Origin: a virus
Lineage: Duplodnaviria; Caudoviricetes
Virus record (IMG/VR): IMGVR_UViG_3300000351_000079
Coordinates: 1 to 59,830 of that record
Reading direction: 5' to 3' (one strand)
DNA length: 59,830 nt
Below, piece by piece: positions 36,832 to 59,830 of this stretch. The notes beneath the pieces are model-generated. The model did no database searches. It was not told the origin of the DNA and saw only the letters and a list, made by a program, of their open reading frames with translations. Positions within the stretch are counted from its first letter, which is position 1. Each line of letters starts with the position of its first letter. A program made the translations under genes and the position numbers.

Positions 36832-36832
36832 G

Positions 36833-37640: not shown

Positions 37641-37646
37641 TAAAAC

Positions 37647-37685
37647 AAGACCATACTTTGGAGAAATCCTGTATGGTCTTTTTTT
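37647..37685 (+). terminator. late operon terminator
   Basis: AAGACCATAC...GTATGGTCTT 10-bp stem plus T-tract. Confidence 0.8.
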
Positions 37686-37738
37686 GTTTGCAAAATCAGT
37701 GTATAATTTAAATAGAGTTAAAAATGGGGAGAAAAAAT

Positions 37739-37960: not shown

Positions 37961-38044
37961 TTAGAGTAAATAGCCTTACAAAACTAAACATATGATAAAT
38001 GTTATGATATACTTATCATATTAAGGGCAACAAGGGGGATACAC

Positions 38045-38533: not shown

Positions 38534-38535
38534 GT

Positions 38536-41180: not shown

Positions 41181-41290
41181 GTTTTTAGGGACTAAAGAAA
41201 ACAATATTGATTTTTAGAAATAGATGATAGTTATATAGCATTTTATTAAAGAGTTTAGTAGCAAGCAACTTTTTATATTGGGAGGCAAGG

Positions 41291-44024: not shown

Positions 44025-44093
44025 TTCTGGCTCATGTTACAATTATTAATCAGTATGATGTTATTTTAAAATTCTAATTAGGAGAAAAAGACT

Positions 44094-44375
44094 ATGGATG
44101 ACAAATATTTTGAAACAATAAAGATGGTTGAAGATGTGTTGAGTCGTGATTATGATCTACCAAAATTCCCAGATATTAATCTAGAAATTATTGAGAGTCC
44201 ATTAATTGAGCAAAATGAAATCCTTAAAAAGACACTTGAAGTTATAACAAAAAGTCTGGAGTTAGCAATTGAGGATATCGATGAAGCAAAGAAAGAATCT
44301 AGAAGAAATCTAATCATTGCAATTGCTTCTATTTTAGTTGCAATTAGTATTGCAATTTTGGGCTTTGTTTTTTAG
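44094..44375 (+). CDS. hypothetical protein with C-terminal TM anchor
   Basis: AGGAG RBS; coiled coil plus hydrophobic tail. Confidence 0.6.
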   Translation: MDDKYFETIKMVEDVLSRDYDLPKFPDINLEIIESPLIEQNEILKKTLEVITKSLELAIEDIDEAKKESRRNLIIAIASILVAISIAILGFVF

Positions 44376-44518
44376 GTTGCAACATTCCAAATGATGCCTT
44401 TGCAGTACAAGATTAGACTAAGTTAGATATAAACGAATGATACCAAGAAATTTGAAAAAGATTTGCAAAGCTAAATTACTTATTTCTTCAATTGTAAAAA
44501 GCAACACACAACATTATA

Positions 44519-44599
44519 GGGTAAAACTCCGTACATTATACATCAAAATCGGGTAAAACTCCGTAATAAAGACACATGATTTTAATACGGAGTTTATTT
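44519..44599. repeat. junction repeat cluster: GGGTAAAACTCCGTA x2 plus inverted TACGGAGTTT
   Basis: Exact 15-mers at 44519-44533 and 44551-44565; inverted 10-mer at 44586-44595. Confidence 0.75.
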
Positions 44600-44684
44600 G
44601 TAAAACTGCCTAAAATAAGCATTTTAATGGTTATATAGGCTGGATTTTATTAAAATAAACATCCTTTTCTATAAAATAGAGAAT

Positions 44685-44741
44685 AAAAAGACGAACTTAA
44701 ATTCTAAAAGTTGATTTTAGAACTAGAGCTTGTCTTTTTTT
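44685..44741. terminator. bidirectional terminator-like hairpin
   Basis: AAAAAGAC...TTCTAAAA-GTTGA-TTTTAGAA...GTCTTTTTT. Confidence 0.6.
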
Positions 44742-44765
44742 CTTTTGATACCATATATAAACTCA

Positions 44766-44802
44766 ACCGGATTTGAACTATCTAATAAAGCGGATTTGAA
44801 CT
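44766..44802. repeat. direct repeat CGGATTTGAACT x2 at the left end of element 2
   Basis: Copies at 44768-44779 and 44791-44802; homologous to the 214-260 pair. Confidence 0.75.
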
Positions 44803-44804
44803 TA

Positions 44805-46466
44805 CTAAAAAAATATAATACCATGTTCAGCATCATAATTAGTCTTCCTTATTCGGTATTGGATTGAACCAGGAAGATATAATTCTTTTATTAAATTAAT
44901 GTTTTCGTAATCATCACGTTTGCCTATAACAAAGATAATCTTATTACGTTCTAGAACAACGATTTTTGAGAAGAATTGCTTGTATGGAAACTCATCTATT
45001 GATGTAATTGGGCTATTATAGTTTTTTAAACTAGATTTGATATTAACTAAAAAGTTATCCACATTTAGATCTACTATAATTTTGTTTTGAAGCTCAGCAG
45101 AATGAATTTTCAATTCATAAATACTTTTGCTTAGTTGGTCCATAACTGCTTTATGGAAACTATCTGTTTCTGATGTCATCTTTCCTAACTTTGCTTCTAA
45201 GGCCGATAATTTTTCCTGTGTTGCTTTAAGTTCTTGTTTTGCAATGACAAGTCGTTCATCACTATTTAAAGCCTTAGATAAGGTGTTTAGGAACTCATTT
45301 TTATTATTAATGATTAAATTGATTTGATTCAAAATCTCTTGATCTATGACATCACAAGATAAGGTATCAGCTTCACACGATTTTTTTGATGCATTAGATA
45401 AACATTGTAAAAACCTATTGGCAAATGCATTGCTGTTTTTATTGACTTTCATATTAAAGTGTTTCCCACAATGAGCGCATCTTATAAGACCTGTATATGG
45501 AGATTTCTTGTTTCCAAAAGTTTCTTCCATATTCTTGATATGGCTTTTTTGATATTTAATGCTTTTTTGTTTTCTTATTTCCTGAACCTTGTTAAACATA
45601 GATAAAGATATGATTGCTGGATGTGAATCTACTACATAAAACTGTGGTAGTTCACCTTTATTATTGACAGTATGTTTTGATTTGAACGATGGCCTGTATG
45701 TTTTTTGCAATAAGGCATTGCCTGTATATTTTTCATTTTTTAATATGCCATAAATTGCTGTTTTACTCCAATGTTTATTACCATAAGTTGTAGGAATATT
45801 ATGATCTTCTAGATATCTTATAATAGGTGTTGCTCCAAATCCATCTAAGAATAGTTCATATATTTTTCTTACAGTAGAGGCTTCTTGTTCATTGATGACT
45901 AGGTTTCCAAACTCATCATGATCATATCCAAGCATACCTTTAGTGACAACATGAAACTCTCCCTTTTCAAATCTTTTTGTATTACCCCATTTGACATTTT
46001 CACTTATAGATCTTGATTCCTCCTCAGCCATTCCACTAAGAACTGACATAATCAACTCAATCTTTGGATCGAAAGTTGAGATGTTCTCTTTTTCGAAGAA
46101 CACTTCAACATTTTTATTTTTTAGCTCTTGTATTAACTTGATACTATCAAGTGTATTTCTAGAAAACCTAGAGATTGATTTTGTGATAATTAAATCAATT
46201 AGTCCATTTCTTGCAGCTTCAATCATCAAATTAAACTGTTTTCGCTTGGAGATATTGGTGCCACTTTTACCTTCGTCTGCGTAAACTCCTACAAAGTTCC
46301 AATCAGGATGGCTCATGATTTGTTTGGCATATGTCGATACTTGCGTATCAAAACTTAATAGTTGAACTTCAGAAGAAGTAGAAACCCTTGCATAAGCACA
46401 GACGTTTCGCTTTTTTTTATGAAGGGATAAATCTTTATAATTAATAACTTCCTTTAGTTCAATCAT
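44805..46466 (-). CDS. large serine recombinase
   Basis: VCAYARVST, KSISRFSRN, NEKYTG, CAHCG; counterpart of 298-1947. Confidence 0.92.
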   Translation of the reverse strand: MIELKEVINYKDLSLHKKKRNVCAYARVSTSSEVQLLSFDTQVSTYAKQIMSHPDWNFVGVYADEGKSGTNISKRKQFNLMIEAARNGLIDLIITKSISRFSRNTLDSIKLIQELKNKNVEVFFEKENISTFDPKIELIMSVLSGMAEEESRSISENVKWGNTKRFEKGEFHVVTKGMLGYDHDEFGNLVINEQEASTVRKIYELFLDGFGATPIIRYLEDHNIPTTYGNKHWSKTAIYGILKNEKYTGNALLQKTYRPSFKSKHTVNNKGELPQFYVVDSHPAIISLSMFNKVQEIRKQKSIKYQKSHIKNMEETFGNKKSPYTGLIRCAHCGKHFNMKVNKNSNAFANRFLQCLSNASKKSCEADTLSCDVIDQEILNQINLIINNKNEFLNTLSKALNSDERLVIAKQELKATQEKLSALEAKLGKMTSETDSFHKAVMDQLSKSIYELKIHSAELQNKIIVDLNVDNFLVNIKSSLKNYNSPITSIDEFPYKQFFSKIVVLERNKIIFVIGKRDDYENINLIKELYLPGSIQYRIRKTNYDAEHGIIFF

Positions 46467-48166
46467 ATAAGTTCCTCTCCAATTTCAATAACACTATATT
46501 TGATTTGAAATCCATTTTTCTCGTTTTTAATGGATGAATCAAACAGTGAATCGTAGGTTCTTAGAAGTTCAATTTTATCAGTGAAATCTTTAGATGATAT
46601 TTCTAAATTACTCATACATAAAATCACTTCCTGGTTTGATATTTGAATAATTTTCTTAAATATTAGAAGAAGAGCATCTCGGCTTAGGATTTGAGTTTTC
46701 TGTAAGAATTCCTGAAGTTTTTGTATGCGCTTATTGTTGATATGAAGAGAAGCCAATTGGTTTTGAAATTGTTCAAGTTCATTCTGCAAATCTTCAATCT
46801 CTTGTTTCTTTTCTTCAAAAGCTTTGACAAGATATTTATCGTTTTGATTTGATACATCAGATATTCTTAAGTTTATTAATCCCTTAATCTCATCTTCAAC
46901 TTTACTTATTTGTTTTTGTTTTAATTCTATTGAATCGATAATTTGACTTGAATCTAAATTCTTAATTACTGTATGTGATATCTGATCTATCAAAGTAGGA
47001 TTGATAATTTCCAGTTTTAATAAAGCATCACTACAAACCATTTCCAGTGTTTCATTATCGATGGGCAAGTTATTACATTTGATTTTTTTCTTAGAGGTAT
47101 TTTTACAGGTTAGGACAACTCTTTCGTTTTCTGTCCGATAATTATAGTAGTTTCTATTTAAAACGCGTCCACAACAACTACAATGTACAATACCACTTAA
47201 TGGAAACTGATTCCCATAGCGAGAAGACTCATTACTTGTCGAGCGAACTTTTGTTATTTGTTGGACAACATCGAACAACTCTTTTGAAATAATAGCCTCA
47301 TGATTATTTTCAATATAATATTGGGGAGCTTGACCAGTATTGATGACTGACTTATGAGATAAATAATCGAGTGTCACTCTTTTTTGAAGAAGTACGTCTC
47401 CCATATATTTTTCATTCTTAAGAATATTCATTATGTTCGCTGGATGCCATACAACTTCTTTTCTACCATTTTTGAAATTATTGTCAATTAAGTGTTTGGC
47501 TATTTCTCTATATGACATTCCTGATATATATAGGTTATATATCATTTTAACTACTTTAGCTTCTGAATCGTTGACAATGATTTTTCCATGCGCATCTTTA
47601 TCGTATCCTAGAAATCTACTTGTATTGATTCGAATCGTGCCTTCTTTGTATCTTTTTCTAATACCCCATTTAACATTTTCACTTATATTTCTAGCTTCTT
47701 CTTGAGCAATGGAAGAGAATATTGTCAACATTAAATCTACTTTTGAATCAGTAGAACTGAGGTTTTCCTTTTCAAAGAAGACTTCAACATTAATTAATCT
47801 TAGTTCTTGGATGATCGATAAACAGTCCACAGTATTTCTTGCGAATCTTGATAATGATTTTGTCAAAATTAAATCAATTTTTCCATTTCTTGCATCTTCA
47901 AGCATTCTTAAAAAATTAACCCTTTTTTTGGTGCTGGTTCCTGATGTTCCTTCATCTGCATATAAGTCTACAAAGTCCCAATCTTTATTATCTTGAATTC
48001 TTTTTGTATATTCAGTGATTTGAGCATTATAAGAATTAAGTTGATCGGTTGAATCTGTTGAGACCCTTGCATAAGCACATACACGCCTCTTTTTTGGAAT
48101 TACATCTGCATTACCAGGAATAAATGCTGGGGTAGCGTCTATTCTGATTACTTTTCTTTCATTCAC
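46463..48166 (-). CDS. large serine recombinase
   Basis: VCAYARVST, KSLSRFARN, NEKYMG, CSCCG; counterpart of 1947-3644. Confidence 0.92.
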   Translation of the reverse strand: MNERKVIRIDATPAFIPGNADVIPKKRRVCAYARVSTDSTDQLNSYNAQITEYTKRIQDNKDWDFVDLYADEGTSGTSTKKRVNFLRMLEDARNGKIDLILTKSLSRFARNTVDCLSIIQELRLINVEVFFEKENLSSTDSKVDLMLTIFSSIAQEEARNISENVKWGIRKRYKEGTIRINTSRFLGYDKDAHGKIIVNDSEAKVVKMIYNLYISGMSYREIAKHLIDNNFKNGRKEVVWHPANIMNILKNEKYMGDVLLQKRVTLDYLSHKSVINTGQAPQYYIENNHEAIISKELFDVVQQITKVRSTSNESSRYGNQFPLSGIVHCSCCGRVLNRNYYNYRTENERVVLTCKNTSKKKIKCNNLPIDNETLEMVCSDALLKLEIINPTLIDQISHTVIKNLDSSQIIDSIELKQKQISKVEDEIKGLINLRISDVSNQNDKYLVKAFEEKKQEIEDLQNELEQFQNQLASLHINNKRIQKLQEFLQKTQILSRDALLLIFKKIIQISNQEVILCMSNLEISSKDFTDKIELLRTYDSLFDSSIKNEKNGFQIKYSVIEIGEELI

Positions 48167-48180
48167 TATATAACCTCCAT

Positions 48181-48225
48181 TTCGTTATCACACATATTCG
48201 CTCTAAAACAAACAATTATCAAGTC
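48181..48225 (-). promoter_or_regulatory. promoter-like motif upstream of the element 2 recombinases
   Basis: GACTTGATAAT-N12-AGCGAATATG...TAACGAA, same spacing as 3661-3704. Confidence 0.55.
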
Positions 48226-48240
48226 AATTCGATACGGAGT

Positions 48241-48390
48241 TTATTTTGCATGAACTATCTTGTATTCTTCTAGTAGATCAATGAGCGATTCATAATATTC
48301 AATAAAGGATATTAACCCTTCCTGATGAAGTTTATATATCATGGTTTTTTTGTAATGATACTCAAGTTGATTTTGCTTATCTATTTTCAC
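48241..48390 (-). CDS. 49-aa SHOCT-like small protein (not in ORF track)
   Basis: GTG start after GAAGGAG; MKIDKQNQLEYHYKKTMIYKLHQEGLISFIEYYESLIDLLEEYKIVHAK. Confidence 0.75.
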   Translation of the reverse strand: MKIDKQNQLEYHYKKTMIYKLHQEGLISFIEYYESLIDLLEEYKIVHAK

Positions 48391-48410
48391 TAAAACTCCT
48401 TCTAAAGAAC

Positions 48411-48440
48411 AAAAAATCCTACGCGTAAGAACACGTAGGA
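48411..48440 (-). terminator. intrinsic terminator after the element 2 repressor
   Basis: TCCTACGCG-TAAGAA-CACGTAGGA with an A6 run (U-tract on minus strand). Confidence 0.7.
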
Positions 48441-48530
48441 CATCTTAGGTCAAATAGACCAATTCAATTATATCGCCAAAATGATTATAACAAATCTCAA
48501 AATAATTTGTGACCAAGTAGTGTAGACAAA

Positions 48531-49196
48531 TTAAAAATCTTTGATCGCCTTTTTGATTGTACCAATTAAGATTGTATCTATTTCATCTTTGGTAGCTATA
48601 ATTGGCATCATGTTTTGGTTTAGGTATGTATAACTATTCTTTCTTCTTGGGGTAGGTGTGAATTTTACTACAGAAGGATAATAGTAATCTTTATCACGTA
48701 GTAACGCATAAACACCTTTATTATCGATTTGATCTATTACATATAGATTCATATCAACTAATAGCGTAGTACCCATAGGCATTTTAAGAAGTAATGAATC
48801 AGACATTAAATCTACAGCAACTAGTCTTTTGGACTCTTTAAGATTACTATCGAACACAAAGTTCTCAACTTTAGGCTGTTGTTCATATCTACCATCTGCA
48901 CTTAATTTATATCTTGTAATCATATGGTTTTCACCAAATGAATAAGTATTCTTTCTTTTTAATAGGGCATCAATTGATGTATCAAGCACATAAGATAGCA
49001 TCATCAAGTTAGATGCTTTTGCATCAGTTTGACCTTGTTCATAGGATATTAGTGTTTTCTTGCTAATGGTTCCATGACAGCGTTTAACGACTTCGTCTAA
49101 TGTGAGATTTCTTGATTTCCTAATGCTTTGATCAATTCCAGAATAATCTACATATGAGTTGTGGAAAACAAATTTTTCTTTTGCCATAATCTTCAC
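48531..49196 (-). CDS. XRE-family repressor with degenerate S24-like C-terminus
   Basis: TISKKTLISYEQGQT HTH; SDSL...GTTLLVD resembles GDSM..GD.VLVD. Confidence 0.75.
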   Translation of the reverse strand: MKIMAKEKFVFHNSYVDYSGIDQSIRKSRNLTLDEVVKRCHGTISKKTLISYEQGQTDAKASNLMMLSYVLDTSIDALLKRKNTYSFGENHMITRYKLSADGRYEQQPKVENFVFDSNLKESKRLVAVDLMSDSLLLKMPMGTTLLVDMNLYVIDQIDNKGVYALLRDKDYYYPSVVKFTPTPRRKNSYTYLNQNMMPIIATKDEIDTILIGTIKKAIKDF

Positions 49197-49207
49197 TTCC
49201 TTTTCAG

Positions 49208-49435
49208 TAACACTATTTTATCACGTATTAAACACTGTGTCATTTCTTTTATCTAATCTACGTAAAAAGTGAAGAATATTACACTATAAATGAATAAGTA
49301 ATTCTTATGTATCCTTTAAAAAGTGTAGTTTCGATATTTGAGGTTTTAGTGTTAAATTGAGTCCGATATTAGCTATCTGTGCCCAGCGTCAAAGAATCAA
49401 ACATAAACATATTATTATAAGTGTATAGGTGTTAA
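49208..49435. promoter_or_regulatory. divergent switch region with repeated ACACT/AGTGT operator-like half-sites
   Basis: ACACT at ~49210, 49232, 49281; AGTGT or GGTGT at ~49322, 49348, 49420, 49428. Confidence 0.4.
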
Positions 49436-49461
49436 ACAACATAAAACAAGGAGGATTATAA

Positions 49462-49713
49462 ATGGATTTAAGGATGTATTTGGTAAGTGCTAGACAGAAT
49501 AAAGGTTATTCTCAAAGAAGAACTGCAAGGGAATCTGGAGTATCTTATCAACACTATGCGAAAATTGAAAATGGTGATCGTGGACGAAAAGTATCATTCC
49601 TAATCATAGGAAGAATTGCAGCAGTATTAGACATTTCTCTTGATGATCTATATCAATTGGAAAAAGCATATCTAGAAGAAATCGAACTAAAAAATGAATC
49701 AAAACCGTATTGA
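49462..49713 (+). CDS. Cro-like XRE regulator
   Basis: HYAKIENGDRG; homologue of 4791-5087. Confidence 0.82.
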   Translation: MDLRMYLVSARQNKGYSQRRTARESGVSYQHYAKIENGDRGRKVSFLIIGRIAAVLDISLDDLYQLEKAYLEEIELKNESKPY

Positions 49714-50623
49714 TTTTAAGAGATTGATAGAAGCCTATATTCAAAGCCTGGATAGAAAAGAGATAACCAAACAATCATATTTGAAGATCTTATTAACATT
49801 TAATGAGTACTTAATAGCAAATTCAATTTTATCGCCAAATAAAAAGGATATCTTATGCTATAAAGAGTACTTATCTAAAAAAGTTAGATCTGCTTCAATT
49901 CAAAAAACAATTGTTGTGCTAAGAGGTTTCTTTACCTATCTTGATTCAGAGGACACATATAGAAATGTTATGACAGGTGTAAGAGGAGTTAAAATAGAAC
50001 CAACCTTTAAACGAGCATCACTAACTCTATTAGAAATGTTAAATTTGCTAGATAAAGCAGAAGAGTTATCTAATACAATTGAGGGCAAAAGAAACTATGC
50101 AATAATCGCTTTACTTGCAACTACGGGTCTAAGAACAATTGAAGTGGAAAGAGCTAATGTGAGCGATTTAGTAGCCGTTAGTGATGGATATAAACTCTAT
50201 ATTCAAGGTAAGGGTCATGATGATAAAGATTTATATGTCAAGATATCAGATGACGTTTATCAAATCATTATGGAGTATCTTTTATTAAGAGAAGATTCAT
50301 TTGAAGCATTATTCATCACTCATGGTCGCAATAATCATGGGAAGAGAATTCAAACAAGAACGATAAGAGGTATTGTCAAAGAAATCCTAAGAAGAACTGG
50401 TATAGATGACAAAAGATATACCGCCCATAGCTTAAGACATTCTTTGGCAACAAACTTAATCCTTCATGGAAATGGTTCGCTGGAAGAAGCAAAACAAATT
50501 TTAAGACATAAAGACATCGCAACAACACAGATATATAATCATTCATTAGCTAGGTCCCAAAATGATGGAGAACTCAAAATGAGCAAGTTACTGTTTGATA
50601 GAAAGGGTAAAAAGTATGAATGA
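49694..50623 (+). CDS. tyrosine recombinase
   Basis: TGLR, QGKG, HSLRH, ILRH, TTQIY; homologue of 5101-6000. Confidence 0.9.
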   Translation: MNQNRIDFKRLIEAYIQSLDRKEITKQSYLKILLTFNEYLIANSILSPNKKDILCYKEYLSKKVRSASIQKTIVVLRGFFTYLDSEDTYRNVMTGVRGVKIEPTFKRASLTLLEMLNLLDKAEELSNTIEGKRNYAIIALLATTGLRTIEVERANVSDLVAVSDGYKLYIQGKGHDDKDLYVKISDDVYQIIMEYLLLREDSFEALFITHGRNNHGKRIQTRTIRGIVKEILRRTGIDDKRYTAHSLRHSLATNLILHGNGSLEEAKQILRHKDIATTQIYNHSLARSQNDGELKMSKLLFDRKGKKYE

Positions 50624-50810
50624 TAAAGTGGTATTATATGATATCAATGATCTTATTGAGATTCTAAAAGTTACTCGAGTAACAATCATCAGGTATATCA
50701 ATCAAAAAAAGATAAGAGCATTCAAGGTTGGCCAAGGATGGAGAGTGACCAAAGAAGCTCTCGAAGAATTTATCAAGATAAGCGAAAAGAATCATGGCTG
50801 GAAAACCTAA
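50616..50810 (+). CDS. excisionase-like HTH_17 protein
   Basis: YDINDLIEILKV...KVGQGWRV; ATG 50616. Confidence 0.8.
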   Translation: MNDKVVLYDINDLIEILKVTRVTIIRYINQKKIRAFKVGQGWRVTKEALEEFIKISEKNHGWKT

Positions 50811-51684
50811 ACTAGGACTTGAATACTTTTCTGTTGATGTTGATATGACAAGAAATATGAAAATTAAAAGGTTGATGAGAGCATTTGGGACTGAAGGGTA
50901 TGCAGCCTTTATGTTCCTTGTTTCATGGATTTATGAAAAAGGTCAGTTCTGGCGGTATGATAATCTAGATGATGTGCTGTTTGGATTATCAGAAGCCATT
51001 CATGTAGAGGAAGATAAAGCATTATCCATTATTAACTATCTTCTAGATGTTGGGTTGCTAGATAGAAAATCCTTTGATCAAGGATATCTCACATCCAAAG
51101 CTATTCAAGAAAGATATTATTATGCAACGAAAAGAAGAAAAGTTCGCATTCTAGAAGAATGCTGTCTGTTATCGGAAGAAGAAATGAAACACATTGATAG
51201 TAAGACCGATTACCAAAATAACATCTCTGTTAGCAAAGATGTTATTCATGCAAGCAAAGATGAGGTTTCTGTATTCAAAGATAGACAAAGTAATAGTCAT
51301 AATAAAAGTAATAGTAAAAAAGATAAAGGAATGATAAATCATGATATTGGATCTGTCGATCCTAATACTATCCCATTTAAAATAAATTATTATCTTCAAG
51401 TCTTAATAAATAATGAAATCGTTTCTGGAACTGAAGACTGGATTACGGTATTAAATGACTTCTTGTATATGATAACTAAGAAGCATAATAAAGATGATGT
51501 TAGAAAGGCGATTTTTTATTCGATAAAAAGAATTAAGTTCAATCAATGGAAAGATGAACATGGATATGAAATTGCAAACAGAGAGCCTTATCTAGAAGAA
51601 ACAATTTCTAATAACATTGCATATAACGAGTCAACAATAGATAGAATCGAACGTATGAAAAATTTCAGTGCAGTGTTTTATTGA
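50794..51684 (+). CDS. DUF4373 replication initiator
   Basis: MAGKPKLGLEYFSVDV, LTSKAIQ; homologue of 7027-7881. Confidence 0.8.
   Translation: MAGKPKLGLEYFSVDVDMTRNMKIKRLMRAFGTEGYAAFMFLVSWIYEKGQFWRYDNLDDVLFGLSEAIHVEEDKALSIINYLLDVGLLDRKSFDQGYLTSKAIQERYYYATKRRKVRILEECCLLSEEEMKHIDSKTDYQNNISVSKDVIHASKDEVSVFKDRQSNSHNKSNSKKDKGMINHDIGSVDPNTIPFKINYYLQVLINNEIVSGTEDWITVLNDFLYMITKKHNKDDVRKAIFYSIKRIKFNQWKDEHGYEIANREPYLEETISNNIAYNESTIDRIERMKNFSAVFY
51232..51326 (+). repeat. putative origin of element 2: 21-bp-period iterons
   Basis: CAAAGAT at 51234, 51255, 51276 followed by AAAGTAATAG repeats. Confidence 0.55.
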
Positions 51685-51730
51685 CGATATGTTTGAATGT
51701 TTAAGTTGGATTATATAGAATTTAAATAAT

Positions 51731-51792
51731 TGCAACGGAATTTCTTATTCGATTAGAAAAACCGTTGCATTTTGTGTTTTATATGCTATACT
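51731..51792 (+). promoter_or_regulatory. abiE promoter with inverted-repeat operator
   Basis: TGCAACGG..TTTCT / AGAAA..CCGTTGCA overlapping -35 TTGCAT; extended -10 TGCTATACT. Confidence 0.7.
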
Positions 51793-51819
51793 ATATATGA
51801 AAAGAAGTGTGGTGATGAT

Positions 51820-52482
51820 ATGAAAAGTCCAAAGAAAAAAGATATAATTCTAGAATACATAAAAAAAAACTATGATAACAAAACACCTATATTTGTAAAT
51901 GATATCTATAAAGAATTCACTGAAATTAGTGAAGGTACGATTAGATCCTTATTTAAACGTTTTAGTGATGCTGATGTTTTAGAAAAAGTGGATAATGGTG
52001 TATACGCTTTACCTAATAAGGAGAGCGTTTTAGGCAAAGCTACTGTTTATGTTTCAAATGTTATTGAAAATAAATATATTCGAAATGAAAAAGGGCAGAG
52101 AATAGGATACATCAGTGGCATAAACTTTTCGAATCAAATAGGACTTACATCACAAACCGCAAGTGTTAATACAATCTATTCAAATAATGTATCAAATAAG
52201 AAAAGAATGACAACACTAAAAAACAGTAGACTGATAATTAATGCACCAAGAGTTAAAGTTACTGATGAAAACTATAAATTGCTTCAGATATTAGACTTGT
52301 TAAATGAATTTGAAAAACTTAGTGAACAAGATTTAAAAACGGCCTCAAACAAAATACTAGAGTTTTTAGAGAAAATAAAATTAACAAAGGAAGAAGTAGA
52401 ATTAATTGTATCTAAATATCCATTAGAGGCACAAGTGAAATTCTATAAAATAGGGGGAGCAAATGCTATTACATCAACATAA
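51820..52482 (+). CDS. AbiEi-like antitoxin (DUF6088-like)
   Basis: wHTH with GVY motif, GYISG...NQIGLTSQ; start moved to ATG 51820. Confidence 0.78.
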   Translation: MKSPKKKDIILEYIKKNYDNKTPIFVNDIYKEFTEISEGTIRSLFKRFSDADVLEKVDNGVYALPNKESVLGKATVYVSNVIENKYIRNEKGQRIGYISGINFSNQIGLTSQTASVNTIYSNNVSNKKRMTTLKNSRLIINAPRVKVTDENYKLLQILDLLNEFEKLSEQDLKTASNKILEFLEKIKLTKEEVELIVSKYPLEAQVKFYKIGGANAITST

Positions 52483-53407
52483 AGAAGAATTTGAACAAAT
52501 TGTACAAGCGACTGCTGATGATTTGGGGTTAGGTAATTTTCAAGTTGAAAAAGACTACTATGTATCATTGTTTTTAAAAGAACTACAAAAAATAGATAAT
52601 GATATCCAAATTGTTTTTAAAGGCGGGACATCTCTTTCAAAATGTTATGATATAATTGATCGATTTTCAGAAGATATTGATTTGTCGGTTAAATTTAACA
52701 CAGATAAAATCACAACATCAGAAAGAAGAAAACTTAAAACAAGTATTACTAAAATTATTGAATTATTAGGCATGAACTTCATCAACCCTGAAGAAGTAAG
52801 ATCAAAAAGAGACCATAACCAATACAATGTAGGATATGATCATATATTTCAGCCTGATGAAAACACGGTACCGCACATTATAGTTGAAACAATTGTCGTA
52901 TATAGACCGTATCCTATAAAAGAAATGGAAATAAGTAATTACATTACTAAGTATTTGAAGAAAAATAATAGAGCTGACTTAATTGAGAAATATGAATTGT
53001 CTCCATTTGTAATGCCAATACAAACAATGGAAAGAACATTTATTGATAAACTTTTTGCTATATGTGATTACCATTTACAAAAAGAGTATAATCGTTACTC
53101 AAGACACATTTACGATATACATATGATTTGGAACAGTGGAAAACTAGATGAAGACATCATGAGAAAAATAGTTCTGGATGTTATTAAAGATCGACAACTA
53201 TTTGGCAGGCGAAATTTATCCTGTCAATCAGGAGCTTCACCAAATGATGTATTGAAAGAGATAGTTGCACTAAAAGTATACGAAACAGATTATAATAATA
53301 TTACTGCAAAATTTATCTACAAACCTGTTGATTATAATGCTTGTATAGAGAGTTTAAAGAAAATTACTGATACAAAAATCATCCCCAATCTGATAAAAGA
53401 GTACTAG
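52463..53407 (+). CDS. AbiEii nucleotidyltransferase toxin
   Basis: VEKDYY, FKGGTSLSK, RFSEDID, RHIYD. Confidence 0.9.
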   Translation: MLLHQHKEEFEQIVQATADDLGLGNFQVEKDYYVSLFLKELQKIDNDIQIVFKGGTSLSKCYDIIDRFSEDIDLSVKFNTDKITTSERRKLKTSITKIIELLGMNFINPEEVRSKRDHNQYNVGYDHIFQPDENTVPHIIVETIVVYRPYPIKEMEISNYITKYLKKNNRADLIEKYELSPFVMPIQTMERTFIDKLFAICDYHLQKEYNRYSRHIYDIHMIWNSGKLDEDIMRKIVLDVIKDRQLFGRRNLSCQSGASPNDVLKEIVALKVYETDYNNITAKFIYKPVDYNACIESLKKITDTKIIPNLIKEY

Positions 53408-53564
53408 AGAATGGTTGGCTACTTCAGTAGATTGTTTTTTCTAAATATTTATTACCGATAATCTATGTTAATGGACATGTGAGTAATGCAATTTCAATTA
53501 ACACTAGTGCAATAATGATATTTTCAATGTCAATTACATATCAAAATAATTCAAGTAAAACGTC

Positions 53565-53600
53565 GCCACTGGTTGCCTATGCAAACAGTGGTTTCTTTTT
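53565..53600 (+). terminator. terminator-like hairpin upstream of the HTH gene
   Basis: GCCACTG-GTTGC-CTAT-GCAAA-CAGTGGT then TTCTTTTT. Confidence 0.6.
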
Positions 53601-53659
53601 GTATAATGGATAGGTGAACAAAGGGTGAGCGATTTACCCTCTCAAAGGAGAAATGATTT

Positions 53660-54157
53660 TTGGCTAAAGTTTTAGACTCATTTGAAAGATGGGAAAATCA
53701 AGGACTATTAAAGAATAAATTAAAAATAATAGAAGAACTAGTGGCAAAGAATGTAACACAGGAAAAGATTGCCAAAGTCATTGGGATATCTGAAAAGACA
53801 CTGCAAAAATTAAAAAATAAGCATGTTGAATTTGCTCGTGCATTCTCTAGAGGTCAGTTAGATCTTAAAGATAACCTTATAGGAGCAATCTATAAAAAAG
53901 CTATGGGATTTGAACATGAAGACATTCAAACGCAAATGGAAGATCATAATGGAAAGCCTAAAAAGAAAATTGTTAAAACAATGAAGTATTATCCACCTGA
54001 TCTAAATGCTGCAAAATATCTTCTAATTATCAAGTTTGGTAGATCTTTTAATGAGAAAAAAGATGAACTTGATCTAATGGAAAGAAGAATTGATGAAAAA
54101 GAAAATGAGTGGACCAACGAACAAAATTTCTATAAGGAGGTAAATCATGAAGTTTGA
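53660..54157 (+). CDS. HTH terminase-small-like protein, homologue of 14222-14716
   Basis: IAKVIGISEKTL, KKAMGFE, PDLNAAKYLLIIKFGR. Confidence 0.7.
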   Translation: MAKVLDSFERWENQGLLKNKLKIIEELVAKNVTQEKIAKVIGISEKTLQKLKNKHVEFARAFSRGQLDLKDNLIGAIYKKAMGFEHEDIQTQMEDHNGKPKKKIVKTMKYYPPDLNAAKYLLIIKFGRSFNEKKDELDLMERRIDEKENEWTNEQNFYKEVNHEV

Positions 54158-54533
54158 CTTAAATGATTTGTTTAATGAGAATATTCCTTTATATCATAGA
54201 ACAATGATTAGTGATTGTTCTTCAAATGAGTATATATTTGGCAAACTTATTGGGAAGTTAAAAGAAAACTTCAAGGATTACCAACAATCTGAAATCATAT
54301 ATATAACCTATCGAAAAGAAATGTTTAATTATCTTGTTATGATATATCACTTTGATGATGTGGAAATTACATTAACCCCTATTGAAATCAAGGTTTTTAA
54401 AGCATGGGACCAAATGAAAGACTATATTAGAAGTATTCAAGTGCATATCGATGATAATTCATATCAAATAGAAAGAAAACATGCGGGTGTTTCAGATGCT
54501 TTTGATTATAATGTATTTGACTCCGATAGATAA
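54147..54533 (+). CDS. hypothetical protein
   Basis: AAGGAGGT RBS; overlaps the upstream gene. Confidence 0.65.
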   Translation: MKFDLNDLFNENIPLYHRTMISDCSSNEYIFGKLIGKLKENFKDYQQSEIIYITYRKEMFNYLVMIYHFDDVEITLTPIEIKVFKAWDQMKDYIRSIQVHIDDNSYQIERKHAGVSDAFDYNVFDSDR

Positions 54534-54553
54534 TTAGCAATTTAGAAATATAT

Positions 54554-54597
54554 AAAACGTCACATAAAGTCTTAAATTCGACTTGTGTGACGTTTTT
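54554..54597 (+). terminator. terminator before the element 2 cos copy
   Basis: AAAACGTCACAT-AAAGTC...GACTT-GTGTGACGTTTTT. Confidence 0.7.
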
Positions 54598-54670
54598 ATT
54601 GTGTAATAGAATAGAATAATCACCTTGCTCACAATTCATTAATAATCGTATATAAAATCATCTTAATGAT

Positions 54671-54753
54671 ACCCCCCCATTGAATGTAATTCTCGAGTAC
54701 AGGGTACCGCGTAGGGGGACCTTTAAAATACGGAAGATACATTTTTTGAAAAA
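54671..54753 (+). other. copy of the putative cos site in element 2
   Basis: AGGGTACCGCGTAGGGGGAC identical to 19908-19927; upstream CCCATTG and ATTTTTTGAAAA 20 bp downstream also conserved. Confidence 0.8.
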
Positions 54754-54872
54754 GGCTAATTGCATAAACAAAAAATATTGGCAAACATCAAGGAAATATA
54801 CGGTTTAATGTATAAAATATAGGACAAAAATGTTATAATTTAGAAAACAAGTGTTTAACAGGCGGTGATGGG

Positions 54873-57800
54873 ATGTCGATCGTACTTGATACAAATAAGC
54901 ACGGTTCAGTTGGGGAGTATGTTAAAGACAACACTTTGAGAAAAGCAAACATCGATATTGCTTCCTCCATTTTTACAATTTATGCATATGATGAACTGAA
55001 AAAAGTATTAGACGATACTAGCAAATTTAGGTTCCTTTTTAATGAACCTACTTTTATTGAGAAATTAGAGTCAAATCAAAAAGAAGTAAAAGAGTTTCAG
55101 TTACAGATGTTGAAAAGAGAAAGGAATGTTTCTGAATATTTCTTGGAGATAGGATTGAAAAATAATTTAGACCAAAATCAAGTAGCAAATCAATGCTATC
55201 AGTTCATTCAATCTAAAGCTGAAGTCAAATCAGTTCTTAAATCGGGCACTATAACATCAAGCAACATCTATGTTAAAAATAGAAATGAAAAAGATTTTGT
55301 TATATCAGGAAATGGTATAAACTTTTCTTTAGATGGATTAGGGTATTCAAACCGAACAAGATGGGATTTTAACACTGTTTTAACAGAAAAGAATGTCATA
55401 AATGACTTTGAATCCTTTTTTAATTCAATTTGGAACAATCCTAACTTAGTTGTTGATGTTAAAGAGACTCTACTAGAACATATTACAAATTTATATAAAG
55501 AAAACGCACCAGAATTGGTGTATTTTGTTACGTTATATCATTTGTTCAATGAAAAACTAACAAATATGGATGACATGGCAAAAATTAAAGAAAAGACAGG
55601 TATTCACAATACAAAAATTTGGCAGATGCTTTATAATTTCCAACAAGATGCTGCAGTAGGAGCTATCAAGAAATTAGAGTTATATAATGGTTGTATTATA
55701 GCTGATTCTGTTGGGTTAGGGAAAACATTTGAGGCACTTGCTGTCATGAAGTATTATGAGCTTAGAAATGCTAGAGTTCTAGTTTTAGCGCCTAAGAAAC
55801 TTAGAGGTAACTGGACAGGATTTAAACAAAACTCTATTACTAATCCTTTAGTTGATGATAGATTTAACTATGATGTGCTTAATCATACCGATTTATCAAG
55901 AGATTTTGGAACTTCTGGAGAAATAAATTTATCTAAAATAAATTGGGGCAATTATGATTTAGTTGTTATAGAAGAATCGCATAATTTTAGGAATAATCCT
56001 GCCTTAAAAGGCAAAAAAACCAGATACCAAAAGTTAATGGAAGATATCATTAAAAGTGGTATTAAAACAAAGGTACTTATGCTATCTGCTACTCCAGTAA
56101 ATAATAGATTAGCGGATCTTAAGAATCAAATCATGTTTATCACTGAAGATAAAGATGATGCATTTAATGATAATTTAAATATTGAAAGTATTGAAAACAC
56201 GCTGAGAATTGCACAATATCGCTTTGGTGAATGGTCTAAACTTCCTAAAGAAGAACAAATTATAGAAAATCTATTACCAATGTTAGATTACAGTTTTTTC
56301 AATCTTTTAAATACTGTGACAATCGCAAGAAGCAGAAAACACATTCAAAAATACTATGATACGAAAGATATTGGAGAATTTCCGAATAGATTAAAGCCAA
56401 TATCAGTCAAAACCGATATAGATGTAAAGAATCAATTTCCAGAACTTAATGAAATTAATGGATTAATCGCGAAACTTAATTTACCTGTTTATTCTCCATT
56501 ACTATATGTTATGCCATCAAAGATGGATGAGTATGAAAAACTCTATGAACAAATTGTAAAAGGTGGTCAGGGTAGTTTTAAACAATCAGATCGAGAGCGA
56601 AACCTTGTAAATTTAATGCGTGTGAATATTTTAAAGCGTTTAGAAAGTAGTATTCATTCCTTTAAACTAACTGTGGAACGCATTAAAGATAAAATGGATG
56701 CCATGCTTTCTAAAATAGAACAGGGATTAGATTATCAAGTAGATCTAGAAGAAGAAATTGATGATGATGAAGTTGATGATTTAGAATTAGGAACAAAAGT
56801 TAAAGTAAAACTCAAAGATTTAGATTTGATTCGATTGAAAGCGGATTTAAAAGAAGATCAAGCAGCTTTAGAGTATCTTCTTCAAGTAACTTCAAAAGTA
56901 AGTGTTGAGGAGGATGCAAAACTCATCCAACTCAAAAAACAAATAACTGATAAAATCAAACAGCCACTTAATGTTGGAAATAAGAAGGTTATTATTTTTA
57001 CTGCTTTTGCGGATACAGCAGCATACTTACATGATAATTTATCAGATTGGCTTTATACAACTTTTGGAATTTATACCGGGATCGTAACTGGTTCTCAAGT
57101 AACCAAATCAAATGTTCCAAAAGCTCGAAATAATTTTGAAGAAATATTATCAATGTTTTCTCCTAAATCTAATAAAGCTACAGTTAAGCATCAAATCAAT
57201 GTATTAATCGCTACAGATTGTATTAGCGAGGGTCAAAACTTGCAAGACTGTGACTACTTAATTAACTATGATATCCATTGGAATCCAGTAAGAATCATAC
57301 AGCGTTTCGGTAGAATAGATAGAATTGGATCAGAAAATAAAGATATACAACTCGTTAACTTCTGGCCAAATCTTGACCTAGATGAGTATATCAATCTTGA
57401 GTCTAGAGTTAGAAACCGAATGACGATGGTTGATATTTCAGCTACTGGAGAAGATGACTTACTTAATCCTGAAAGCAAGAACTTAAAATATCGTAAAGAC
57501 CAATTAAAACAACTTCAAGATGAAGTCGTAGATTTAGAAGACTTATCTGGAGGAATTTCAATCACTGACTTAACATTAGATGATTTTATAATGTCACTTG
57601 ATAAGTATTTAAAATCACATCCAGGACTTTTAGAATCTTATCCTACGGGTATATACGCAGTGACAGATATTAATGAAAAGCTTAAAAACGATATCAGTTC
57701 TGGTGTTATTTTTTGTTTGAAACAAAAGAATTTTACAGAGAGTGAGAAAGGACAAAACTCACTTTATCCATATCACTTAGTATATGTTAAAGAAGATGGA

Positions 57801-58097
57801 ACCATAGAGATAAAAAATACGAACCCTAAAAAAATATTAGATATTTATAAAGCAATTACCAGTAATAAAAACGAAACGATTAAAAAATTAGTGAATGAGT
57901 TTAATCAAGAAACAAAAAATGGAAACAAAATGGATAAATATACAGGACTCCTTGAAAAAGCCATCTTTGATATAAAAGGGTATATTGAAGAAAAAGGGGT
58001 TAAATCATTATTTAGACTTGGAAAATCGACAATACTAGATAATAAAGTAACAGGTTTAGATGATTTTGAATTGATTACATTCTTGGTGATAAAATGA
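54873..58097 (+). CDS. SNF2-like SF2 helicase with degenerate PLD-like N-terminal domain
   Basis: ADSVGLGKT, IEESH, LSATP, SEGQNLQ, QRFGRIDR. Confidence 0.85.
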   Translation: MSIVLDTNKHGSVGEYVKDNTLRKANIDIASSIFTIYAYDELKKVLDDTSKFRFLFNEPTFIEKLESNQKEVKEFQLQMLKRERNVSEYFLEIGLKNNLDQNQVANQCYQFIQSKAEVKSVLKSGTITSSNIYVKNRNEKDFVISGNGINFSLDGLGYSNRTRWDFNTVLTEKNVINDFESFFNSIWNNPNLVVDVKETLLEHITNLYKENAPELVYFVTLYHLFNEKLTNMDDMAKIKEKTGIHNTKIWQMLYNFQQDAAVGAIKKLELYNGCIIADSVGLGKTFEALAVMKYYELRNARVLVLAPKKLRGNWTGFKQNSITNPLVDDRFNYDVLNHTDLSRDFGTSGEINLSKINWGNYDLVVIEESHNFRNNPALKGKKTRYQKLMEDIIKSGIKTKVLMLSATPVNNRLADLKNQIMFITEDKDDAFNDNLNIESIENTLRIAQYRFGEWSKLPKEEQIIENLLPMLDYSFFNLLNTVTIARSRKHIQKYYDTKDIGEFPNRLKPISVKTDIDVKNQFPELNEINGLIAKLNLPVYSPLLYVMPSKMDEYEKLYEQIVKGGQGSFKQSDRERNLVNLMRVNILKRLESSIHSFKLTVERIKDKMDAMLSKIEQGLDYQVDLEEEIDDDEVDDLELGTKVKVKLKDLDLIRLKADLKEDQAALEYLLQVTSKVSVEEDAKLIQLKKQITDKIKQPLNVGNKKVIIFTAFADTAAYLHDNLSDWLYTTFGIYTGIVTGSQVTKSNVPKARNNFEEILSMFSPKSNKATVKHQINVLIATDCISEGQNLQDCDYLINYDIHWNPVRIIQRFGRIDRIGSENKDIQLVNFWPNLDLDEYINLESRVRNRMTMVDISATGEDDLLNPESKNLKYRKDQLKQLQDEVVDLEDLSGGISITDLTLDDFIMSLDKYLKSHPGLLESYPTGIYAVTDINEKLKNDISSGVIFCLKQKNFTESEKGQNSLYPYHLVYVKEDGTIEIKNTNPKKILDIYKAITSNKNETIKKLVNEFNQETKNGNKMDKYTGLLEKAIFDIKGYIEEKGVKSLFRLGKSTILDNKVTGLDDFELITFLVIK

Positions 58098-58852
58098 GAA
58101 ATATTTTAGAGTATTTAAATATTCCTAAATCAGGAAAAACAAAACAAAGAATTGCACTCAAAGATATCATTGAACAATTAGACCCATCTGCTAAAGAAAA
58201 GAGGATTTTATCATCAGAAATTGAATCAATTTATCTTGTTGGTGTTCTTAATCTAGACACAATAAGAATTCAATCCTATATTGATGAAGATTATCGTTAT
58301 GAATCTATTTATGTGATTCGTGTCATGTTAAAATCAAACGTGCATTTTGCAACCATTAATGAGAGACTTCATATGGCATTCCCTAATCCAGTAATCATTG
58401 TATTTGAATGGGAAGAAAATATAGTGCTTTCAACTGCGCCAAAAAGAATTAATAAGAACGTTAGAGAAAAAAGTGTCATCGAATCAATATATACAACAAA
58501 TATATTTATAATCGATGGTAAACATAATTTTCTTTTGAAACACTTGAATCTTCAAACTGTCAAGGCTTTGAATCTTAAAGAACTTTATGAAACTCTAACT
58601 GATTATATATTTTCAGAAAGACTTATTGAATTGATTGGTGAATATCCTAAACAAATTCCAAACACCTCAGAGTTAAAACAGACAATTAAGTTGATAGAAT
58701 CTGAAAAATCTCATTTGAATGCATACAAAGAAAGTTACAAACAAGCATCAATGATGGCTGAAAAAATGGAATTACATATGAAGATCCAAAAGACACAAAA
58801 AAATATTGAAGACATCATTTTAAATTTAAAGGAGGCATTATTACATGAATAA
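58094..58852 (+). CDS. DUF4391-like protein
   Basis: LHMAFPNP, KRIN, C-terminal coiled coil; lies between helicase and mod. Confidence 0.65.
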   Translation: MRNILEYLNIPKSGKTKQRIALKDIIEQLDPSAKEKRILSSEIESIYLVGVLNLDTIRIQSYIDEDYRYESIYVIRVMLKSNVHFATINERLHMAFPNPVIIVFEWEENIVLSTAPKRINKNVREKSVIESIYTTNIFIIDGKHNFLLKHLNLQTVKALNLKELYETLTDYIFSERLIELIGEYPKQIPNTSELKQTIKLIESEKSHLNAYKESYKQASMMAEKMELHMKIQKTQKNIEDIILNLKEALLHE

Positions 58853-59741
58853 AATGGAAGGCAAAAGTCTTGATTTAGAAAAGCTAAATATAGAAAAAAT
58901 CAAAGAACTATTTCCGAATGTTGTTACCGAAGGAAAAGTGGATTTTGATAAACTTAGAATTATATTAGGTGACCAAATAGATGATCGTGTAGAAAAATAC
59001 CAATTCACTTGGAATGGGAAATCAGACACAATTAAATTAGCACAATCGCCATCAACTGGAACATTAATTCCAAGTAAAGAAGACAGTAAAAACTGGGATA
59101 CTACAGGAAACCTTTATATTGAAGGTGACAACTTAGAAGTCTTGAAGCAACTCCAAAAGACTTATTACGGAAAAGTTAAAATGATATATATAGATCCCCC
59201 TTATAATACAGGTGGAGATTTTGTGTATAAAGATGATTTCAAGGATAACATTAAGAATTATAAAGAACAGACTCAACAAACCAGTAGAGCTAATCCGGAA
59301 ACTAATGGTAGATATCATACTGATTGGCTTAATATGATGTATTCTAGATTGATGTTAGCTAAAAATTTACTCTCCAATGAAGGTGTTATTTTTATAAGCA
59401 TTGACGAGAATGAAAATTACAATTTAATTAAGCTTTGTAATGAAATTTTTGGCGAATTTAATAGAATAAGTGACATGGTTAATATTACAGGAGCTAGTCA
59501 AAATGGAGAAGGAGTTTTAATACAAAAAAACTATGAGACATGTTTAGTATATTGCAAAAATCTGAGTTTGTTAAAAATTAATAAGGTTGACAAGGCAAAT
59601 GAGTCACTAAGGAGTCTAGCTGATGCACCAACACCTCTAAACACTAGGCCAGACATGGGGTACACAATATATTATAACGAATTGAATGATGATATAATTC
59701 CCTTGAAAGATTATGATAAAAATTTAATACCAGACTGTTGA
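58845..59741 (+). pseudogene. mod: type III R-M methyltransferase (mod), 5' part, interrupted
   Basis: FTWNGK, NLYIEGDNLE, IDPPYNTG, WLNMMY; SAM-binding FxGxG half missing; stop lies inside IS-like sequence. Confidence 0.8.
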
Positions 59742-59830
59742 CAAAGTCGCCTAGAAATAGGCGGCTTTTTCTTTTCGATTAAGATTCACGAGCAAACATG
59801 TAGAAGTTTCGAGTTTTCCACGTGGATAAG
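59731..59830. mobile_element. probable IS terminus (IS1182/IS5-like end)
   Basis: CAGACTGTTGACAAAG begins where mod breaks, followed by hairpin AAAGTCGCCTA-GAAA-TAGGCGGCTTT; no transposase visible. Confidence 0.55.

Follow-up and report, generated by a model that had tools for sequence, protein, structure and literature searches.

A recurrent family of phage-derived defence islands in Izemoplasmatales that carries the candidate packaging site of a related prophage

The described families of phage satellites (P4-like elements, phage-inducible chromosomal islands (PICI), capsid-forming PICI (cfPICI), PICI-like elements (PLE) and phage-inducible chromosomal minimalist islands (PICMI)) are small, share few core genes with phages and are known almost only from Proteobacteria and classical Firmicutes (PMC10085698). 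The same source gives PICI a size of about 7–20 kb, with a median of 9.5 kb, and few core genes homologous to those of phages (PMC10085698). SaPIbov4 and SaPIbov5, cos-type Staphylococcus aureus pathogenicity islands (SaPIs) of the PICI subfamily, have no terminase of their own but possess a highly conserved copy of the helper cos site, and cos phages with the same site package them; their helpers are HNH-bearing siphophages of 42–45 kb (PMC5052747). Here we analyse IMGVR_UViG_3300000351_000079, an entire virus record of 59,830 nt with a GC content of about 30% (the window), in which a prophage, element 1 (e1, 45–44576), is followed by a second element, e2 (about 44577 to the record end). We find that e2 is a member of a recurrent family of phage-derived integrative defence islands, about 23–32 kb long, in Izemoplasmatales, which are wall-less Bacillota/Tenericutes. 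That e2 is also a cos-type satellite of e1-type phages has, judging from sequence comparisons, an even chance. We propose only tentatively the fuller picture of a previously undescribed family of 23–32 kb cos satellites, a reduced form of the helper lineage with a recombinase pair, multi-system defence, cores that track those of the helpers and no recognisable capsid remodelling.

SaPIs are about 14 kb long, form small capsids by means of Ccm and carry a tyrosine integrase, Stl and a primase-replicase. In contrast, the 23–32 kb e2-type elements encode two serine recombinases, a phage-type repressor/cro pair, a Lin1244_N initiator and, in addition, a tyrosine recombinase; capsid-protein homologues are missing from e2, whose backbone is homologous to that of its presumed helper. 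PLE of Vibrio cholerae, satellites of about 18 kb with a single large serine recombinase for integration and excision and the lytic helper ICP1, have only the use of serine recombinases in common with e2 and no relationship in sequence, the comparison being made by domain content only. Staphylococcal cassette chromosome (SCC) islands such as SCCmec possess two adjacent, different large serine recombinases (ccrA/ccrB) and attach in orfX/rlmH; e2 resembles them in its paired recombinases only, since a phage-type switch, an initiator and a cos-like site are all missing from SCC. Like defective prophages and phage-derived defence islands, e2 joins the lysogeny module of a phage to defence cargo and is devoid of virion genes, but it differs from them in an architecture kept across lineages, in its intact ends and in the selective conservation of a packaging-type site. 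P4, whose hosts are Enterobacterales, has a length of about 11 kb. None of the P4 genes psu/delta/sid, epsilon or alpha primase-helicase has a counterpart among the 14 e2 proteins in Pfam or PHROGs; the shared feature would be that of a cos-packaged satellite of temperate phages with variable defence cargo, which is P4's (PMC10085698; PMC13586616) and is proposed here for e2. The SatelliteFinder definition of PICI (PMC10085698) is matched by e2 in the integrase (a serine enzyme being exchangeable), the MerR/AlpA-type HTH_17 gene and the lack of structural and lysis genes, and possibly in a terS-like gene. Unlike PICI, however, e2 has no primase-replicase or capsid-morphogenesis gene, islands of its family lie outside their size range except perhaps L026, and 7 of its 14 proteins have e1 homologues. 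The capsid, portal and terminase genes that cfPICI possess were not found in it. If satellites, the e2-type islands would therefore probably form a new family outside the described PICI, cfPICI and P4-like groups. An initial annotation, made from the window alone, had already held that the layout matches none of the PICI, cfPICI, P4, PLE and PICMI layouts known to it; this stands for the features of PICI, cfPICI and P4-like elements, and for PLE as far as domain content goes.

Annotation with Pfam, PHROGs and PADLOC identifies e1 as a complete siphovirus-type prophage (Table 1). Its early genes run in the order serine recombinases, HTH_3 repressor, cro, tyrosine recombinase, Ant (BRO-N/KilAC), HTH_17 and Lin1244_N initiator. 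The initial annotation had described e2 as repeating this order with clearly diverged proteins, and both statements are borne out: by Pfam the genes at 44805–51684 follow the e1 backbone minus Ant, and BLASTP (E≤1e-3) detects an e1 homologue for 7 of the 14 e2 proteins, at 32–49% identity. The two serine recombinases, a presumed integrase/excisionase pair, are 38% and 45% identical to those of e1, cro is 35% identical, the tyrosine recombinase 45%, HTH_17 34% and the helix-turn-helix (HTH) protein 49%; the initiator is 32% identical over its N-terminal 119 aa only. The best match of the e2 tyrosine recombinase among 50,697 public phage records reaches only 31%, which supports a shared descent of both backbones. 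We conclude that the e2 family descends from the phage lineage of e1 and has kept integration, switch, tyrosine recombinase/HTH_17, initiator and phrog_309 HTH genes, whereas virion, HNH and terminase genes were lost. By annotation, e2 thus has integration, regulation and replication modules of its own; no primase or helicase domain was found between its regulators and its cos-like site, the Lin1244_N initiator being the sole replication gene there. Its defence cargo consists of AbiE and an SNF2-DUF4391-type III restriction-modification (R-M) operon, to which the relatives add Wadjet, Gabija, SIR2, nSTAND3 and others.

Some details of the initial annotation were revised. The terminator between repressor and recombinase operon was recovered on the minus strand. 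The iterons said to differ between the elements were not, only weak two-copy repeats being present in both initiator regions. The label SHOCT-like for a small open reading frame (ORF) of e2 finds no support either in a scan of the e1 counterpart and of the homologue in locus L018, neither of which has a SHOCT match at E≤1. The HTH protein named terS-like does match phrog_309, the PHROGs 'terminase small subunit' family (E=5e-22), but its partner in e1 is the protein at 14222–14716 and not the HTH protein at 7850–8263. A TerS role for this protein is doubtful because the e1 homologue lies 6 kb from TerL, beside a ParB-methyltransferase.

The record ends inside a multicopy repeat, probably an insertion sequence (IS); in run X1 its last 100 nt fall in a 1609-nt sequence with a depth of 21.8 against 3.9 for e2, and branch points lie at 59730–59760. 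Since this repeat cuts e2 off, what the element lacks had to be tested on relatives. A search with the e2 initiator gave 10 further e2-type loci, on three IMG/VR contigs (G001–G003) and seven genome contigs, and all of them carry the e2-type backbone. The e2-type lineages are 60–87% identical in protein and have the same architecture. Homologues without structural genes, whose existence elsewhere the initial annotation had left to be seen, are thus found in 10 further loci. By their initiators the nearest cellular relatives belong to Izemoplasmatales/Tenericutes, with 97% identity in the complete genome of 'Tenericutes bacterium MO-XQ' (G004) and 98% in the metagenome-assembled genome (MAG) G005; additional copies occur in four MAGs besides G005.

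The most informative relative is G005, which is colinear with 44575–59452 of the window at 96.3% nucleotide identity in a single alignment of 14,881 columns. Beyond the counterpart of 59452 it continues with a full-length Mod (644 aa), Res (996 aa), Wadjet (JetA/DUF4194/JetC/JetD), a 186-aa ORF and a Gabija-like OLD-ATPase/UvrD pair, and then reaches the right-end site. Further on, beyond a mini-island described below, come Fic and others and then the housekeeping genes Sua5/TsaC, MFS, DegV and an ABC transporter. The cargo of G002 comprises nSTAND3, the SNF2-type III module, SIR2, an OLD-like gene and three unknown ORFs; the island of G007 closes after Res, a PHP/AAA protein and DUF6602, ahead of a GGDEF-EAL gene, and that of G004 has different cargo plus Wadjet. 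The slot 3′ of the initiator is likewise variable and holds AbiE, nSTAND3 or Schlafen/AlbA_2. Homologues of e1 terS, TerL, portal and capsid were found inside none of the e2-type elements, including the complete ones of G002, G004, G005 and G007, and TerL is present in 0 of the 3 e2-type virus records.

These relatives bear directly on the possibility that e2 is another full prophage, with its packaging, head and tail genes past the IS. The record does stop in an IS-like repeat within e2, and e1-type phages carry cargo between their cos-like site and terS in 11 of 17 loci, amounting to more than 2 kb in locus L004. But G005 reaches its right end with only defence genes before the host genes, and structural genes past the IS, which the initial annotation had named as the finding that would overturn its reading, were likewise looked for and not found in G002, G004 and G007. 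Furthermore, HNH upstream of the site and terS downstream of it, seen in 17/17 and 16/17 e1-type loci, are both missing from e2-type loci. A second full prophage is therefore highly improbable and effectively excluded by the complete relatives. The lack of HNH, terminase, head, tail and lysis genes claimed at the outset could be read in the record only over the visible 15.2 kb of e2; it holds in the relatives.

At the e1/e2 junction, two copies of GGGTAAAACTCCGTA are followed by the left arm of e2, TGATTTTAATACGGAGTTTATTTG (also written TGATTTTAATACGG...), and homology with G005 begins at 44575. In G005 and G006 nothing separates this arm from the CCA of a tRNA, which is of the same kind as that at 1–44 of the window; in G007 the arm stands after another tRNA. 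The right arm AAATAAACAAACTCCATACTAATCACA of G004 and G005 repeats the left arm imperfectly and in inverted form, and after it comes a signature, GCAAACTTGGTTGTGACAACC..., that also marks the right ends of G002 and G007. These ends look like an attP of a serine integrase that integration would have split. Coordinates give island sizes of about 29.0 kb (G005), 31.5 kb (G004), 22.7 kb (G007) and about 25 kb (G002, left end approximate); L026 may be about 13 kb. In the record and in the complete genome G004, an e1-type prophage has an island of like orientation as its immediate right-hand neighbour, whereas in G005, G006, G007 and run X3 the island adjoins a tRNA without a phage. The tandem arrangement with a helper put forward by the initial annotation is thus seen in two cases and is not general, and the helper role itself is proposed from sequence comparison.

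One could also regard e2 as a one-off deletion remnant, or the record as an assembly chimera of two related phages. The junction at 44566–44577 is indeed a branch point in run X1, where the 41-mer has a depth of 6 against 3.7–3.9. Nevertheless, 11 loci including the record, from different assemblies, have the same architecture, and an e1-type element followed by an e2-type one is seen again in a complete genome. One contig of run X3 joins a tRNA-like end straight to the e2 left arm, with a depth of 130–180 over the island and 0–10 over e1 cargo. A remnant or chimera has next to no likelihood and is refuted as an explanation of the family. Runs X1 (source-like) and X3 are assembled contigs of public runs, a kind of data in which molecule ends are not visible; no trustworthy excision joint was found in these contigs, the joints listed having sides of 21–52 letters and being flagged as unreliable. 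Public runs in which the sequence occurs come from landfill, wastewater and sludge. After the e1 right-end 41-mer, run X1 shows a second continuation with the loose end AAGTATTTAACACCTGTTTAACGGGT, which could be the end of another element with the same arm, or come from cells without e2 at that place.

A cos-like site of e1 is placed between HNH and the terS-TerL genes. The exact 20-mer core, AGGGTACCGCGTAGGGGGAC, occurs in 17 IMG/VR contigs, all of e1 type, with SAM synthetase and HNH upstream in 17/17, a terS homologue within 2 kb downstream in 16/17 and TerL in 15/17. The general plan of the site is a C-run, some 22–32 nt, GGGTACCG, 5–7 variable nt, a G-run, TTAA and TTTTTGAAA. Unrelated cargo ORFs lie between HNH and the site, as they do, in the eleven loci mentioned above, between the site and terS (in the window, within 19341–21131); cargo hot spots often flank genome ends, by analogy with those of P2/P4. 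Work of Kala et al. and of Quiles-Puchalt et al., both of 2014, reportedly defined a class of cos phages that depend on HNH, and the latter is said to have found the same dependence in the packaging of cos SaPIs. The gene order HNH, site, terS, TerL leads us to assign e1 to this class, with 19878–19959 as its putative cos site. No Rfam family matches the site. In a metagenome scan with a 14-mer, most of the matches listed were chance matches in unrelated DNA.

The initial annotation had noted that e2 carries an identical putative cos core, and this is confirmed: the 20 nt at 54701–54720 equal those at 19908–19927, and 19908–19959 and 54701–54752 are 83% identical over 52 nt. The site is found between the orphan gene and the SNF2 operon in 6 of the 8 loci that are long enough (the record, G001, G002, G005, G007 and G008), L020, L027 and L028 being too short to show its position. 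When the 25 columns used as search patterns are left out, 14 of the 18 columns that never vary among 54 distinct e1-type sites hold that base throughout the six e2-type sites, whereas only 13 of 60 e1-variable columns are invariant in e2 (Fisher p=2.5e-5, the six sites representing three lineages and not being independent). Neighbouring intergenic DNA, unlike the site, differs between the island lineages. In lineage A (the record and G005) the core is that of the record's e1 and of at least 17 phage contigs. The core of lineage B (G002, G007 and G008), GGTACCGTACGAGGGGAC, equals that of one e1-type phage contig over 18 nt, and this contig carries SAM synthetase, HNH, the site, terS and TerL (74% over a 263-aa blastx match; 78% over 253 aa).

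These results suggest how a cos-type satellite of e1-type phages would live. The island would integrate after a tRNA 3′ end or beside an e1-type prophage by means of its recombinase pair, at junctions whose sequences are observed. Its own repressor would keep it silent until induction of, or infection by, an e1-type phage derepressed it, and it would then excise and, going by annotation, replicate from its own initiator. Phage TerS/TerL together with HNH would cut island concatemers at the cos-like site, and the cut DNA would be packed into phage capsids, by which the defence cargo would spread. The basis for this last step in sequence is the exact copy of the helper core together with a conservation pattern mirroring that of the phages' site. 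In this scheme e1 would be the helper, and e2 would be induced and encapsidated. Such cos-type satellitism, comparable to that of SaPIbov5, is the simplest mechanism proposed here.

Several observations weigh against packaging. The cos assignment of the e1 site rests on position and analogy. Two independent e1-type contigs, in which TerL follows some 1 kb further on, begin 1–2 nt before the core, as a left cos end would; but this is weak evidence because assembly graphs also break at the edges of blocks shared by co-occurring strains. The islands have 51–71% of the length of e1 (44.5 kb), with no capsid-size gene recognisable; the lower limit of lambda-type cos packaging is about 75%, and the islands fall below it. 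Two complete members, G004 (31.5 kb) and L026, have neither the site nor the orphan and SNF2 module. For the core of lineage C (G001), IMG/VR contains no phage partner. In G007 and G008 the resident phages of e1 type have the core GGTACCGTACAGGGTGGC, four positions off that of the island, and those of G007 also carry the core CGCACAAGGGGGC. The site always accompanies the orphan gene and the SNF2-type III module (6/6), and so could be part of that module's history. Finally, e1-type TerL was not found in the incomplete MAGs G005 and G006, which is not evidence of absence; it is present in three of the five genomes that hold an e2-type island. Among 201 sampled genomes of the order, about 18 have a full-length e1-type TerL (≥74% identity) and only 5 an e2-type initiator match (2 of them at ≥69% identity), too few for a co-occurrence test.

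Several of these observations would be expected of a phage-derived integrative island that is not packaged at all and moves, if it does, by its recombinases or by generalized routes, the site being an ancestral relic. Such an island could persist without the site, as the two complete members do, beside resident phages with other cores; a size of 23–32 kb matches no known satellite and poorly suits cos packaging in a 44.5-kb capsid, and no gene for capsid redirection or interference was found. A neutral relic should decay, however, and here the columns conserved in phages are kept (14/18 against 13/60), while two lineages have distinct core variants that each match a phage exactly. We consider an unpackaged island unlikely. 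The claim of the initial annotation that e2 is a satellite built from the lineage of its helper stands as to lineage, given the shared backbone; satellite status, with a cos-like site conserved in the family but lacking in two complete members, is a proposal.

The site could instead be a regulatory element, copied from the control region of the phage late operon and acting as a sensor or decoy that would switch the SNF2-DUF4391-type III R-M operon, with phage late regulators, or terminase/HNH binding the site, as the trigger. It lies 65–112 nt ahead of the phage late operon (cargo, terS, TerL) and precedes the SNF2 operon in 6/6 islands, and the sigma/activator-like HTH protein of e1 (7850–8263) has no e2 counterpart. 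Yet a conserved extended −10 element (TGTTATAAT) that belongs to the SNF2 operon itself lies about 90 nt 3′ of the site, a hairpin upstream is conserved too, and a consensus scan found no sigma-70 promoter within the site. A GC-rich core of C-run and G-run in a genome of 30% GC is typical of cos, not of promoters. Moreover, only 2 of 80 viral contigs with SNF2 homologues (40–86% identity) have the site, both of them e2-type, so that 78/80 homologous modules do without it. A regulatory role is in our view decidedly unlikely. The module itself is common in viral contigs, with Mod in 62/80, Res in 49/80 and a detectable DUF4391 homologue in 6/80.

If e2-type islands are packaged, satellites can arise from the lineage of their helper by loss of the virion module with retention of cos, defence islands of near-phage size with up to four or five systems travel in phage capsids, and free-living wall-less bacteria join the hosts of satellite-helper systems. 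The three island lineages with different core variants provide a natural test of cos specificity. No report of such a satellite family was found in the open-access literature, where the listed papers combining satellite, cos and serine recombinase concern other systems. The open-access literature searched also gave no paper on DUF4373, the former name of Lin1244_N, with satellites, or on DUF4391 with SNF2. Phage satellites of Tenericutes, Mollicutes, Mycoplasmatota or Izemoplasmatales were absent from the open-access matches listed, and no relevant open-access paper on Izemoplasma prophages was found, judging by titles and abstract openings. Public phage records contain no close DNA match to e1, e2 or the cos region.

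Table 1. Coordinates of features of e1 and e2 in the window.
Feature	Position	Strand	Remarks
tRNA gene 3′ end	1..44	+	...GGTTCGAATCC...CCTCCA; left attachment flank of e1
e1, complete siphovirus-type prophage, about 44.5 kb	45..44576	+	Pfam, PHROGs, PADLOC
e1 pair of large serine recombinases	298-3680	-	Pfam
e1 sigma/activator-like HTH protein	7850-8263		beside initiator; PHROGs
e1 phrog_309 HTH protein	14222-14716		adjoins ParB-methyltransferase
e1 HNH endonuclease, 94 aa	18231..18515	+	PF01844; no e2 equivalent
e1 cos-like site	19878..19959	+	C-run, spacer, core (19908-19927), TTTAA, TTTTTTGAAAA
LmuA-like trypsin-fold protein	20063-20749		e1 cargo 3′ of the site, before terS
e1 terS-like gene (122 aa, phrog_1066) and TerL	20763..22771	+	terS overlaps TerL start; Pfam, PHROGs
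e1 SIR2+HerA and Gabija pair, right end	38536-44024		GajA 41291-42916, GajB 42903-44024; PADLOC
e1/e2 junction	44500..44600		...AAAGACACA|TGATTTTAATACGGAGTTTATTTG, e2 left end (attL arm)
e2 large serine recombinase pair, 553 and 567 aa	44805..48166	-	Resolvase, Recombinase and Zn_ribbon_recom domains
TACGGAGTTTATTT motif	48233		upstream of e2 recombinase operon
49-aa ORF 5′ of e2 recombinase genes	48241..48390	-	e1 counterpart 3705-3866
Terminator, e2 repressor/recombinase operon	48441-48416	-	
e2 divergent lysogeny switch	48531..49713		HTH_3 repressor-like 48531-49196 (-), cro-like 49462-49713 (+)
e2 tyrosine recombinase (309 aa) and HTH_17 (71 aa)	49694..50810	+	HTH_17 Xis/AlpA/MerR-like
e2 Lin1244_N (formerly DUF4373) replication initiator	50794..51684	+	phrog_2562
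AbiEi/AbiEii defence pair	51772..53407	+	variable cargo slot; PADLOC
e2 phrog_309 'terminase small subunit'-type HTH protein (165 aa) and 128-aa orphan	53660..54533	+	HTH 53660-54157
e2 cos-like site	54672..54753	+	core 54701-54720 identical to e1 core
SNF2/HKD helicase (1074 aa), DUF4391, broken type III Mod	54873..59741	+	
Multicopy repeat start, probable IS	59731..59830	.	depth, branch points (run X1)

The middle region of e1 encodes four DNA methyltransferases, the phrog_309 HTH protein, a ParB-N6_N4 methyltransferase, SAM synthetase and HNH, and TerL is followed by portal, S78 protease, capsid, connectors, tail tube, Dit and tail genes. The TerL protein is about 39% identical to those of siphophages of Clostridioides and other Firmicutes. 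With its right-end genes (Table 1) the e1 prophage is a defence carrier too. None of the 22 late ORFs of e1 matches an endolysin family (27155–38533; Pfam, E≤0.01), which would fit a wall-less host; small membrane-like ORFs are present in this interval, for example at 37724–37960. At 1–44 the anticodon-loop text CTGCAAC reads by eye as tRNA-Cys(GCA); ARAGORN reports no tRNA there because the record start cuts the gene.

The best PADLOC model for the e2 SNF2 helicase is 'HKD+Snf2'. The product of e2 mod covers only positions 2–262 of the 621-position type III methyltransferase profile and is broken after about aa 295, which, together with the repeat depth, indicates that mod is interrupted by the IS-like repeat where the record stops; the type III system of this copy is, from its sequence, probably inactive. 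Homology between the mod genes of e2 and G005 stops at 59452, probably at the variable target-recognition region, and the ORF ends at 59741 beside the repeat. No gene for capsid structure or capsid size is recognisable among the e2 proteins with Pfam or PHROGs, or with Foldseek for the orphan. The 128-aa orphan is family-specific and has 14 database relatives, all unannotated; a pattern search gave no relatives in viral contigs, and an Atlas comparison gave nothing above chance. Its AlphaFold model (pLDDT 70) has no informative Foldseek match in PDB or BFVD, the best PDB match (E=1.4e-3, TM 0.4) being to C11 protease fragments and the best in BFVD to an unnamed protein.

Across 44508–44600 and 48233 of the window and the right ends of G004 and L026, either TACGGAGTTT(ATTT) or the complementary motif is found in the e2 left arm, two to three times at e1-type right ends and upstream of the e2 recombinase operon; it is also present as triple repeats after the initiator in L018, L026 and L027. 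The e1 left arm (ACCAAGTTG) resembles CAAACTTGGTT repeats at e2-type right ends. From this distribution the two arms of each element are unlike, which may mean that the two serine recombinases each recognise a separate half-site, or that one element is nested in the other and the pair is not simply in tandem. The 3.7-kb mini-island of G005 (DUF6577, AbiEii and three small ORFs; contig C22, reversed coordinates 15538–19300) sits between two copies of the e2-type right-end sequence, and in G004 a repeat cluster of e1-type right ends occurs twice, with about 2 kb between the copies. Small elements seem to accumulate in arrays at the tRNA site. A further packaging region of e1 type, whose core variant is ..CGCGTAGGTGGGC, is located at 35240–39280 of contig C2 of G004, which at 93 kb has the size of a replicon.

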